From a virus (Duplodnaviria; Heunggongvirae; Uroviricota; Caudoviricetes), in the IMG/VR virus record IMGVR_UViG_3300006879_000538, positions 1-4,408 of that record: a DNA stretch of 4,408 bases; one strand, written 5' to 3'. Below, in pieces: positions 2,291 to 4,408 of the stretch. Position numbers and translations under genes: made by a program. Positions within the stretch are counted from its first letter, which is position 1; each line of letters begins with the position of its first letter. The notes beneath the pieces were generated by a model. It ran no database searches. It was not told the origin of the DNA and was given only the letters and a program-made list of their open reading frames with translations.

Positions 2291-2314
2291 AAAAAACCCG
2301 CCGGATGGCGGGTT
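2291..2314 (-). terminator. Rho-independent terminator for minus-strand transcription, downstream of the HEPN gene
   Basis: Inverted repeat aacccgcc (2295-2302), loop ggat, ggcgggtt (2307-2314) on the plus strand. On the minus strand the GC-rich stem is followed directly by a T6 run (complement of a-run 2291-2296). It sits 18 nt after the HEPN stop (2332) and about 20 nt before the V-like start (2271). Confidence 0.6.
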
Positions 2315-2331
2315 CGTAAATAAACTTTTTG

Positions 2332-2712
2332 CTAGGCTACTTGGGATTTCATTTCTGCTATTTTGTCCAACATCTTGTTCACCACTGCAATAGATGAACT
2401 TGCTTCAGTTTGCAAAATAGTCTCTGTTAGATCGTAGTCCGCGCGCTTACGCTTCATTTTTTGCTGTTTGAGAACTGCCCCCAACTGGATAAGAGACATT
2501 AACTCATAAGGTTCATCCTTCCGCCTTGCATCCGAAATAAGATATTGAACAACTCCATCATGTGTTGTCGGCGGGCAACACGTCAAAAGGCCACATGTTT
2601 CATGGTAGAACGCATAGTATGCCCGTGAAATAGCACTTCTGAAACCAGACTCAATACCAGTGTCTAAACATGCACGGGATGCGTCAATGAACTCTTTTCC
2701 TTGGATACTCAT
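2332..2712 (-). CDS. HEPN-domain protein, putative RNase toxin/effector, 126 aa
   Basis: ORF in the track. Residues 29-58 (SRAYYAFYHETCGLLTCCPPTTHDGVVQYL) match the pattern I recall for classical HEPN proteins: an R-x6-H motif inside an RAYYA.FH helix followed by a conserved H.GV segment. The motif R30-H37 is encoded at 2602..2625 (RC = CGGGCATACTATGCGTTCTACCAT). Start ATG overlaps the stop of the upstream gene by 4 nt (ATGA). Confidence 0.7.
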   Translation of the reverse strand: MSIQGKEFIDASRACLDTGIESGFRSAISRAYYAFYHETCGLLTCCPPTTHDGVVQYLISDARRKDEPYELMSLIQLGAVLKQQKMKRKRADYDLTETILQTEASSSIAVVNKMLDKIAEMKSQVA

Positions 2713-3482
2713 ATCGTGAAGTGAATCTCCTGCCGATTACGCCCGCGGAACCAGGCCGTCACATTCTTTCCAGCGAAGATCTCATTCATTGCAATTTCAG
2801 TAGCAACGTCAATATCCATATCGGAAAGCATATCGGCATCCTCACATAAAACATCACAAACTATGCCAGCATCCCCATCCGGGCTTGTGACATAGTCATG
2901 AGAAATAGCTAAAACACCATAATTCTTAGCGACATTAGTAATTGTTCTGGAAAGAAGATTTATCTCATTCGTGCTTAAATCAGTCACACTTATGAATGTA
3001 TCTAATGCCCGTTTTTTTTCCATGATATCTGACTCCATGCTTTCTCGCTCGCTCTCACTTCCGATCATAGACAGAGCTTTTCGAGCAAAAAAGAGTGATA
3101 GTTCACCATCGCCGTCAGCATAGGCTGCATTCCTTGCTCGTATGCACAAAGCAAGGCTGGTAATTTCCCGAGCTAACCTCACAGCCTCTTCTCGGTACAA
3201 TTCATACTGTCCAGTATGACTGAGGTAAGAAAGATAATTTCTGGCTACTGTTTCGTCACGGTATGCAACTGCCTCCTGAAAAAAACCGACAGCTTCAACA
3301 TGTTGATGCGCAGCTCCATAAGCCAGAGCCAACACCATCAACTTAACTGGCTCATCAGGGATTTTGCCTGCTTCAGAGACAACTCGCTTTAGCGTAAAAG
3401 CATCCAGTTGCTGCCCTTCATCAATACGTGAAGTAAGCATCTCAAGCGTTTCATTCAGTTTGCTATACAGTGCAAGTGACAT
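2709..3482 (-). CDS. Hypothetical protein, 257 aa, operon partner of the HEPN gene (candidate antitoxin/sensor)
   Basis: ORF in the track. AAGGAGG lies 6 nt upstream of the ATG at 3482..3480. The N-terminal half (about residues 45-140) looks alpha-helical and possibly TPR-like (LALAYGAAHQHVEAVGFFQEAVAY...YLSYLSHTGQYELYREEAV). The C-terminal region is acidic (residues 202-229, DGDAGIVCDVLCEDADMLSDMDIDVATE). I see no Walker A motif and no clear GS...DxD nucleotidyltransferase signature. Confidence 0.65.
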   Translation of the reverse strand: MSLALYSKLNETLEMLTSRIDEGQQLDAFTLKRVVSEAGKIPDEPVKLMVLALAYGAAHQHVEAVGFFQEAVAYRDETVARNYLSYLSHTGQYELYREEAVRLAREITSLALCIRARNAAYADGDGELSLFFARKALSMIGSESERESMESDIMEKKRALDTFISVTDLSTNEINLLSRTITNVAKNYGVLAISHDYVTSPDGDAGIVCDVLCEDADMLSDMDIDVATEIAMNEIFAGKNVTAWFRGRNRQEIHFTI

Positions 3483-3533
3483 TAATCATCCTCCTTAACG
3501 GAGGAATTTATCATTGGAAGGCATCATCAACAA
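3483..3533 (-). promoter_or_regulatory. Putative sigma70-type promoter, palindromic element and SD for the two-gene operon
   Basis: Read on the minus strand: candidate -35 TTGTTG (3533..3528), 17-nt spacer, TG-extended -10 TAAATT (3510..3505), then the perfect palindrome TCCTCC-GTTAA-GGAGGA (3505..3489) whose downstream arm is the SD, then the ATG at 3482. Promoter hexamers are a modest match to consensus. Confidence 0.35.
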
Positions 3534-3680
3534 CCTGTTGTTTTATTCATTAATCCATATTCTAGACTAATGCTTTGCTCTTTTCTAAGGAGAGAAAGGA
3601 GAACTGGTTAAAATTTCTTACTCTCACCCAGCCACTTTTTTACAAGGGAAAGATTCGATGATTTTCGGCGCATCCATGAC

Positions 3681-4157
3681 TTAATAACCTTGAGATTTAG
3701 CAACGCGAATACCGGCCGCCATCCCATTGAAATCCCATGCGTTTTTATGGGCAATAGGATTACGTGTGTTGAAGGCATAGCGCTGGCCCATTTTCCATGC
3801 TGTATCGCTAACAGACTTATCTTGAGAGAGGTTTACCCACTCCTTTATGCCTTTGTAAACATAGGACTTACAATCATCCGTAGTTCCTTTCCGATTGGTG
3901 TAGGCATCCAGATCTTCGCATTCTTGAAAGGAGTTGCTGACTATATCCGCGAAATCATCAATGGTCATGGCGAATCTGCGACCATTCATAGCGAAAAAAG
4001 GAGTAGCAGAGGCGTAATGTTGCCACTGCGTAAACTTTTGCTGATCCATTAAATCAACAGCCATTTTTTCATACTTCCCAGGAGCGGATAATCCCGACAT
4101 CGGAACAAGTAAACTTATTGCAATAAAAATGGCTTTCTTATTCAATCTTATCCCCAC
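3681..4157 (-). CDS. Hypothetical secreted/periplasmic protein with N-terminal signal peptide (start codon uncertain: GTG 4157 or TTG 4145; track ATG 4226 less likely)
   Basis: The track ORF (3681..4226) contains an internal signal-peptide-like segment, LNKKAIFIAISLLVPMSGLSA-PGK, which only makes sense at an N-terminus. GTG at 4157..4155 lies 10 nt after AAGGAG (4173..4168); TTG at 4145..4143 is the alternative. The predicted mature protein has two Cys (QECEDL..., ...DDCKSY), compatible with a periplasmic disulfide. I recognise no family. Confidence 0.55.
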   Translation of the reverse strand: MGIRLNKKAIFIAISLLVPMSGLSAPGKYEKMAVDLMDQQKFTQWQHYASATPFFAMNGRRFAMTIDDFADIVSNSFQECEDLDAYTNRKGTTDDCKSYVYKGIKEWVNLSQDKSVSDTAWKMGQRYAFNTRNPIAHKNAWDFNGMAAGIRVAKSQGY

Positions 4158-4408
4158 CGATTCATTGCTCCTTGACTTTGAAGATCCGCCGCGCCACGCG
4201 CTTGGCACATCATATCCATGTACCACGCCTGGCCCCTTGTGTCACCAGTGTACATAATCCCGCGCACAATATAAACGCCATCCGTTGCGATGCTGGCAGG
4301 TTGTGCTGTGGTGCCGCTGAGCGTGATATTACCGTCCGTGTTCTGGTCGGTGATCTGACCACCAGCCATAGCGATATCGTTGTTCGACAACGCGGCGCGA
4401 TATACAGA
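4148..4408 (-). CDS. C-terminal fragment of an upstream phage tail/baseplate gene (possibly the baseplate hub, Mu gp44 / P2 gpD-like, by synteny), 5' end beyond window
   Basis: The minus-strand frame is open from the window edge (4408) to TAA at 4150..4148 (…SNNDIAMAGGQITDQNTDGNITLSGTTAQPASIATDGVYIVRGIMYTGDTRGQAWYMDMMCQARG…). The track's TTG start at 4390 is probably internal. Functional call rests only on position upstream of the V-like gene. Confidence 0.4.
   Translation of the reverse strand, partial: SVYRAALSNNDIAMAGGQITDQNTDGNITLSGTTAQPASIATDGVYIVRGIMYTGDTRGQAWYMDMMCQARGAADLQSQGAMNRWG

Follow-up and report, generated by a model that had tools for sequence, protein, structure and literature searches.

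The question raised by this locus is what a perfect palindrome does when one of its arms is the ribosome-binding site of a gene and the other belongs to the promoter of the same gene. The window, by which we mean the whole stretch of 4,408 nucleotides that was analysed, carries this element at positions 3489–3505. On the minus strand it reads TCCTCC-GTTAA-GGAGGA from 3505 to 3489 (the plus-strand letters at these positions being TCCTCCTTAACGGAGGA), with two 6-bp arms devoid of mismatches and a loop of 5 nt, just as the initial annotation had described it. Its downstream arm, GGAGGA (3489–3494, minus strand), is indeed a Shine-Dalgarno (SD) sequence, since it is followed by TGATTA and then, 6 nt away, by the ATG (3482–3480) of an open reading frame of 257 amino acids. 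The closest family members keep the 7-nt spacing between the SD core and the ATG, and three G columns of the SD (G65, G67 and G68 of the alignment) are invariant in 16 homologous leaders. The upstream arm, TCCTCC (3500–3505, minus strand), is shared with the promoter: its first base, T3505, doubles as the -7 T of the -10 hexamer, and the remaining CCTCC (3504–3500) forms the promoter discriminator. Between both arms, the loop GTTAA occupies positions 3495–3499 of the same strand.

Short dyads are common in this DNA. The window contains 67 inverted repeats of at least 6 nt within 30 nt, and 10 perfect hairpins with 6-bp arms and loops of 3–8 nt, compared with 6.75 ± 2.8 in dinucleotide shuffles. 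As hairpins of this size are not enriched, we rejected any generic significance of the palindrome. We also discarded its reading as a plus-strand terminator, which had been flagged by a program, because there is no converging gene on the plus strand and what follows there is the same dyad and then the A/T-rich -10 region. The expectation for one given SD is of another order: with the local base composition, an exact complement located 3–8 nt upstream should occur in ~4e-4 of the genes. Folded alone as RNA, the 17-mer reached -9.6 kcal/mol (z = -4.1 against shuffles), and the 6-bp stem was found in all the longer contexts that we folded. The SD core of the window had a predicted unpaired probability of 0.000, whereas 208 control genes taken from the collected loci had a median of 0.28. 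Values ≤0.02 were found in 4.8% of these 208 controls and values ≤0.01 in none of the 35 controls with a strong SD, all of which showed a less extreme occlusion than the window.

Whether such a hairpin can act depends on where the RNA starts, which led us to the promoter. The upstream regions of 58 loci collapsed to 16 distinct leaders, from proteins 47–100% identical to that of the window (a scan of GTDB genomes gave one locus, and a metagenome scan contributed few new lineages). The columns invariant in all 16 leaders were exactly TTGT, TG and TA...T, plus the three SD G columns; the invariant promoter bases can be written as TTGT, 16 variable bases and TGnTAnnnT. In the window, they correspond to a -35 box TTGTTG (3528–3533, minus strand, with TTGT as the invariant part), a 17-nt spacer and an extended -10 TGaTAAATT (3505–3513, minus strand; TG at 3513–3512 and hexamer TAAATT at 3510–3505). 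The palindrome had been said to overlap a putative -10, and this conserved element, which ends precisely at T3505, bears that out. The distance between -35 and -10 is constant at 17 nt in the 16 leaders, with spacer letters that vary freely, and the -10 ends 21–26 nt before the ATG in all of them. The pattern TTGT-N16-TGNTANNNT has one match in the window, against 0.04 expected by chance. Judged by its conservation, this pattern corresponds to a sigma-70 promoter of the extended -10 type. It accompanies the cassette that it precedes into unrelated phage contexts (L022 and L054). A generic promoter scan did not call it because the -35 TTGTTG is weak (it scores 3/6), and the promoter claim therefore relies on comparative conservation.

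Several features surround this promoter. Immediately upstream of the -35, a CAGG plus an A-rich tract (TGAATAAAACAA, 3534–3549, minus strand), with alignment columns C21, A22 and G23 invariant or nearly so, is possibly an UP-element-like region. A perfect 14-bp palindrome (6-bp arms and a 2-nt centre; AACAACAGGTTGTT, 3529–3542, minus strand) lies across the -35. It is also perfect in L045, L014, L046 and L053, its left arm being lost in other relatives, and could represent an operator or merely the -35 with conserved flanking bases. Because conservation is confined to CAGGTTGT, which is (nearly) invariant, and does not extend to the left arm, we did not retain it as an operator. The promoter spacer contains a second pyrimidine tract, GCCTTCC (3516–3522, minus strand), which would be a potential alternative anti-SD in RNA reading through from upstream. 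Related tracts occur in homologues, namely CCTCC in L035 and, in L053, CCCCTTCC, which is the predicted SD partner there.

At sigma-70 promoters, transcription starts 6–9 nt past the -10. With a conserved -10 ending at 3505, the start is therefore predicted at 3499–3496, that is, within the loop of the palindrome (G3499 or A3496), and transcripts from this promoter would therefore lack the anti-SD arm. We folded minus-strand RNAs with 5' ends varied from 3680 to 3496. For 5' ends anywhere between 3680 and 3504, the mean predicted unpaired probability of the SD was 0.02–0.03; for 5' ends at 3502–3496, it rose to 0.43–0.58, exceeding the median of 0.28 of the 208 control genes. In these models, the hairpin is predicted to be a sharp switch set by the position at which the RNA starts. 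The initial annotation had proposed that the upstream arm is an anti-SD able to occlude the ribosome-binding site, provided that transcription starts upstream of 3505. The proviso agrees with the folding, where the SD is masked for 5' ends at or upstream of 3504 and open at 3502–3496. The occlusion itself stands as far as the fold is concerned, a strong hairpin and full sequestration of the SD being predicted, and falls for the mRNA from the gene's own promoter, from which the arm should be absent. As the upstream arm is located inside that promoter, the hairpin could affect only RNAs initiated further upstream; it probably forms only on those that read in from the phage tail genes. RNA with both arms could come from read-through of the tail operon or from a weak promoter-like site located upstream of the cassette.

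The genomic setting is consistent with such read-through. The palindrome precedes a two-gene cassette on the minus strand, composed of the gene for the 257-aa protein (2709–3482) and a gene for a 126-aa protein with a HEPN fold (2332–2712), whose start overlaps the stop of the former by 4 nt (ATGA). The cassette is closed by an intrinsic terminator detected by a terminator scan (2294–2315, minus strand; 9-bp stem with 6 G-C pairs, followed by a T-run). Its neighbours are prophage baseplate genes encoded on the same strand: the spike protein gene (PF18352, 1519–2271), a sheath-initiator-like gene (1166–1519), a hub fragment (4148–4390) and the start of a baseplate-J gene. The cassette is thus located within a row of baseplate genes, those upstream being co-directional with it, and the terminator scan found no minus-strand terminator-like sites between 3506 and 3700. 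Read-through from the tail genes into the cassette is plausible on these grounds.

The 257+126-aa pair was found in 2 of 5,426 complete E. coli genomes, and its family comprises 34 protein clusters across Enterobacterales; a tblastn search with the 257-aa protein against 50,697 phage records gave no match. The pair almost always occupies one slot, flanked by the spike gene on one side and by the gene that follows the hub on the other. It also occurs after the lysis genes of a different phage (L054) and at another place in a Dickeya prophage (L053), whose hub and spike-like genes are next to each other with no cassette between them. Its G+C content is 0.39–0.46, compared with 0.49–0.55 in the flanks. 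In L054, which belongs to another phage type and has 47% protein identity, a terminator with the same stem core (AACCCGC/GCGGGTT) is located 3' of the cassette (4152–4172). We therefore consider this set of promoter, two genes and terminator, which recurs in other phage contexts, a classical moron, inserted in the tail operon of a prophage. The definition reportedly established by Hendrix and Juhala on HK97 is that of a unit of promoter, gene and terminator between late genes of temperate phages. The cassette resembles it in its own sigma-70 promoter, its two open reading frames, its strong intrinsic terminator, its deviating base composition, its insertion between genes that are adjacent in relatives (here the hub-side baseplate genes and the spike gene) and its presence, together with promoter and terminator, in other phage contexts (L053 and L054). 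In contrast with what we propose below, translational insulation from late read-through forms no part of the classical definition.

The structures predicted for both proteins by AlphaFold were of high confidence (pLDDT of 92.2 and 92.7 for the 257- and 126-aa proteins, respectively). The 257-aa protein, which corresponds to PHROG 17809 (function unassigned in PHROGs), consists of a TPR-like helical repeat (residues 1–187) and an acidic alpha/beta C-terminal domain. Its best structural matches were TPR proteins; the C-terminal part best matched the RimP-N domain and the C-terminal domain of CDF transporters. It is acidic, with a pI of 4.7 (4.1 for the C-terminal domain). The best structural match of the 126-aa protein was the HEPN protein 2hsb (TM 0.75), and some sources name its homologues HEPN or UPF0332. 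The residues invariant in 47 homologues of this protein include R25, S29, R30, Y32, Y33 and H37, with an R-x6-H spacing in helix 2, as well as R88, D92 and Y93 at the end of helix 3. In L047 and L052, the gene that follows the 257-aa homologue was called at 55 aa and ~210 nt downstream, instead of as an overlapping gene of 126 aa, which may reflect a disrupted or miscalled HEPN gene.

Our best reading of these observations, to which we give a little less than an even chance, is a gate analogous to the one in T4 gene e, with late read-through transcripts kept translationally masked. The palindrome would be the junction of a promoter and a ribosome-binding site, and the cassette's own promoter would start the RNA in the loop. 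The resulting short RNAs (from ~3499–3496), which the lysogen would make, would be devoid of the anti-SD arm and leave the SD accessible. Long RNAs, whether they come from the tail-gene operon on the same strand or from another start upstream, would carry both arms, and the -9.6 kcal/mol hairpin would bury the SD. Translation of the 257-aa gene from these long RNAs would then be poor, as would that of the HEPN gene, which has a 4-nt overlap with the 257-aa stop codon. A likely advantage is that the lysogen would produce a potentially toxic HEPN module whose synthesis would not be amplified once the late operon is switched on. This mechanism builds on the anatomy of the sequence, the conserved promoter and the predicted folding switch, to which it adds a start site, read-through transcription, an effect on translation and a biological rationale that we infer.

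The logic of such a gate is already known from phage T4. In the genes e, soc, 49, I-TevI/II/III, segB and mobE (the latter from Aeh1), a promoter lies in or beside the 5' arm of an SD-sequestering hairpin, and translation occurs solely from the promoter-proximal transcripts (PMC3014915, PMC2988022; for the gene e-type hairpin, McPheeters et al. 1986, reviewed in both). The locus studied here shares with that group a buried SD, with a stable sequestering hairpin predicted in the long transcript. Its promoter may be placed in a comparable way, since the predicted start in the loop would leave its own transcripts without the 5' arm. It also shares the position of the gene inside a co-directional transcription unit, where longer RNAs would hold the whole hairpin, and a product that is potentially harmful at the wrong time. 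However, the T4 promoters are late (gp55) promoters, whereas the present one is a host sigma-70 extended -10 promoter in a moron of a temperate prophage. The timing would also be the opposite, with translation allowed in the lysogen and blocked while late lytic transcription proceeds. Furthermore, in contrast with the T4 group, conservation across the cassette family is partial. If real, the setting would be new: a moron of a temperate phage with a HEPN-fold gene.

A gate of this kind would have consequences beyond this locus. If it works, cargo genes in a heavily transcribed late operon could stay under their own control, and a HEPN-type module could remain expressed in the lysogen without being amplified during the lytic growth of its own prophage. 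The late amplification of prophage defence systems has recently been shown to be a real problem (PMC11087260): Tha, a HEPN defence system of a prophage, needs to be silenced during induction, which avoids autoimmunity (PMC11087260). For annotation and expression prediction, it would be a warning that a gene may or may not be translatable, according to the promoter that made its RNA.

The main alternative, which we find quite possible without thinking it probable, is that the complementarity is incidental. The strong SD GGAGGA would happen to face a C/T-rich discriminator, the dyad would be an accident of one lineage, and promoter and SD alone would govern expression. Should the gate fail, this is what would be left, an ordinary promoter-SD junction with a lineage-specific coincidence. 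Much in the comparison with relatives favours it. The exact 17-nt dyad was found in only five loci, all from a lineage of ~100% identity. When G-U was allowed, 81% of the 96 stem cells over the 16 leaders paired, compared with 82.6% in column shuffles, so that shuffled alignments pair as well as the real one; the pairing in the stem is explained by a pyrimidine-rich discriminator facing a purine-rich SD. We looked for compensatory double changes in the 16 leaders and found none, and RNAalifold yielded no consensus structure for them. In the closest divergent lineage (L035, L005 and L012, with 92% protein identity), the stem is broken (TCTGCT/GGAGGA) and the SD has an unpaired probability of ~0.3, and six lineages with a weak SD show no sequestration. 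The hairpin is therefore dispensable for the family. The lack of enrichment of such hairpins in the window also fits an incidental origin, and the hairpin would never matter if late read-through were weak or if the RNA were rapidly translated or degraded.

Several observations count, however, against mere coincidence. One is the low expectation for an exact anti-SD so close to a given SD, and another is the occlusion beyond that of all 35 strong-SD controls. In addition, three lineages with 75, 70 and 68% protein identity (L045, L014 and L046, respectively) keep the stem as TCCTCT/GGGGGA, both changes being wobble-compatible transitions, despite divergent flanks and different loops (CCAAC, GCCAC and GGTAC, respectively), and their SD has an unpaired probability of 0.003–0.008. 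In L053 (60% identity), the SD is predicted to be masked by the different tract mentioned above, sited in the promoter spacer, which looks like an independent anti-SD. In all four of these lineages the predicted SD partner is located upstream of the predicted start. The enrichment statistics, nevertheless, ignore shared ancestry and correspond to ~2 independent origins. The evidence for selection on the hairpin is moderate at best. The leaders of more distant relatives with 32% identity (L025–L032 and L043) have a weak SD and no hairpin.

The T4-like gate can also be stated for morons in general, a broader claim that we consider doubtful. Morons of late operons that carry potentially self-harming modules (here HEPN plus a TPR partner) would be insulated from late transcription of the phage itself by an anti-SD built into their sigma-70 promoter, such that only the RNA from their own promoter, the lysogenic one, would be translatable and the RNA from late read-through would stay silent. 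This would amount to a cis-encoded avoidance of autoimmunity, a mirror of the timing of T4 gene e, perhaps with more than one origin (a proximal arm in the clade of the window and a spacer arm in L053).

A second alternative, much less probable than the incidental one, is an attenuator acting on the cassette's own mRNA. If transcription started upstream, for instance from TAGAAA-17-TAGAAT with a start near 3552, every cassette mRNA would carry the hairpin, and translation would stay low unless it were opened by heat, a helicase, a small RNA or a ribosome translating upstream. A weak promoter-like site of this composition does exist (3559–3587, minus strand; from a consensus scan only), its transcript would hold both arms if it were active, and its -10-like motif is kept in the closer relatives. 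Nonetheless, it scores 9/12 with a poor -35 and is not conserved beyond close relatives, whereas the downstream promoter is conserved in 16 of 16 leaders. Another point in favour is a 10-codon upstream open reading frame that runs through the hairpin and ends as TAATG on the main ATG, present in the window and in the 92% lineage; upstream open reading frames are, however, not conserved in L014, L045 and L046. As in RNA thermometers and SD-masking leaders such as ROSE and fourU, the SD is held in a short hairpin by a pyrimidine tract located 5' of it. In contrast with them, the stem is perfect and G-C rich (the -9.6 kcal/mol given above), without the weak or mismatched pairs usual in thermometers, and its arm lies upstream of the predicted start. 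A search of the whole window with the covariance models of Rfam 15, thermometers and leaders included, gave no match at E≤1.

The sequence elements of this upstream region can be described as follows. The motif TAGTCTARAWT (3559–3569, minus strand; TAGTCTAGAAT in the window) sits just past the stop codon of the upstream gene and provides the -10 of the weak promoter in the scan. It is kept in the window, L035 and L014, reads GGCCTAGAAT in L046 and is not found in L045. The 10-codon open reading frame (3480–3514, minus strand) begins at an ATG inside the extended -10 (ATGATAAATTCC...), and its terminal TAATG overlaps the main start. A second small open reading frame, from ATGATG (3527–3522), stops at the TAA of the loop. 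We dropped these upstream frames as a mechanism, since neither is conserved in L014, L045 or L046.

Least probable of all, and indeed most unlikely, is the DNA reading, in which the 17-bp dyad (~-7 to +10) would be the binding site of a dimeric repressor that silences the promoter, be it a product of the cassette or a factor of phage or host origin. It had been put forward in the initial annotation as an operator typical of autoregulated toxin-antitoxin (TA) operons, and the comparative data lend it little weight. As in type II TA operons, the dyad lies exactly over the edge of the -10 and the predicted start, an effective position for a repressor. As in many TA pairs, moreover, the two small genes overlap by 4 nt, and the second one has the HEPN fold common to known toxins. 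However, a type II TA operon has a DNA-binding antitoxin or complex (RHH, HTH, AbrB or Phd/YefM) and a conserved dyad operator, and we found neither: the dyad is perfect in a single lineage and is not conserved as DNA, with 53 of the 96 stem cells (55%) being Watson-Crick pairs over the 16 leaders and T-G mismatches in most relatives, and no HTH, RHH, AbrB or other DNA-binding fold was found in the models of either cassette protein. Searches with the 257-, 126- and 154-aa proteins (the latter encoded upstream of the cassette) gave no match in Pfam or NCBIfam, hits being solely to PHROGs of unknown function, and none in PADLOC-DB v2 at E≤0.1. Repeated half-sites around the promoter were not noted either. 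In contrast with the MNT nucleotidyltransferase or the RHH/HTH antitoxins of TA systems, the partner here is a TPR-like protein with an acidic alpha/beta domain. It has no match to a nucleotidyltransferase family or fold, which sets this HEPN-fold gene apart from HEPN-MNT pairs. The label "TA operon" is plausible only as an analogy.

Some additional observations concern the surroundings of the cassette. Its terminator is located ~22 nt upstream of the ATG of the spike gene (2271). A strong terminator ahead of an essential gene that late transcription must reach would imply antitermination or leakiness. The terminator segment alone (2280–2317) also matches other E. coli genomes. In ~40 other E. 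coli prophages, the same slot harbours a different pair, of 243 and 142 aa, which is apparently a 32%-identity relative. In L056, L057 and L058 (E. coli OkiPb01713, CAU16175 and SCU-171, respectively), these two overlapping genes occupy positions ~1692–2857 and correspond to WP_000050470.1 and WP_000110002.1. In L025–L032, the relatives with 32% identity to the 257-aa protein have this same size of 243 aa, the match being one of size only. This pair is apparently far commoner in E. coli than the cassette of the window. On the other side of the cassette, a 154-aa open reading frame (3681–4145, minus strand) begins with TTG and has a signal-peptide-like N-terminus. Its product is 99% identical to WP_134892694.1, from another E. 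coli prophage, and it stands in for a gene of ~113 aa found in most relatives. Positions 3624–3680 align with the coding 3' end of this ~113-aa gene in strain AH19B041, which suggests a recombination junction near 3676–3690.
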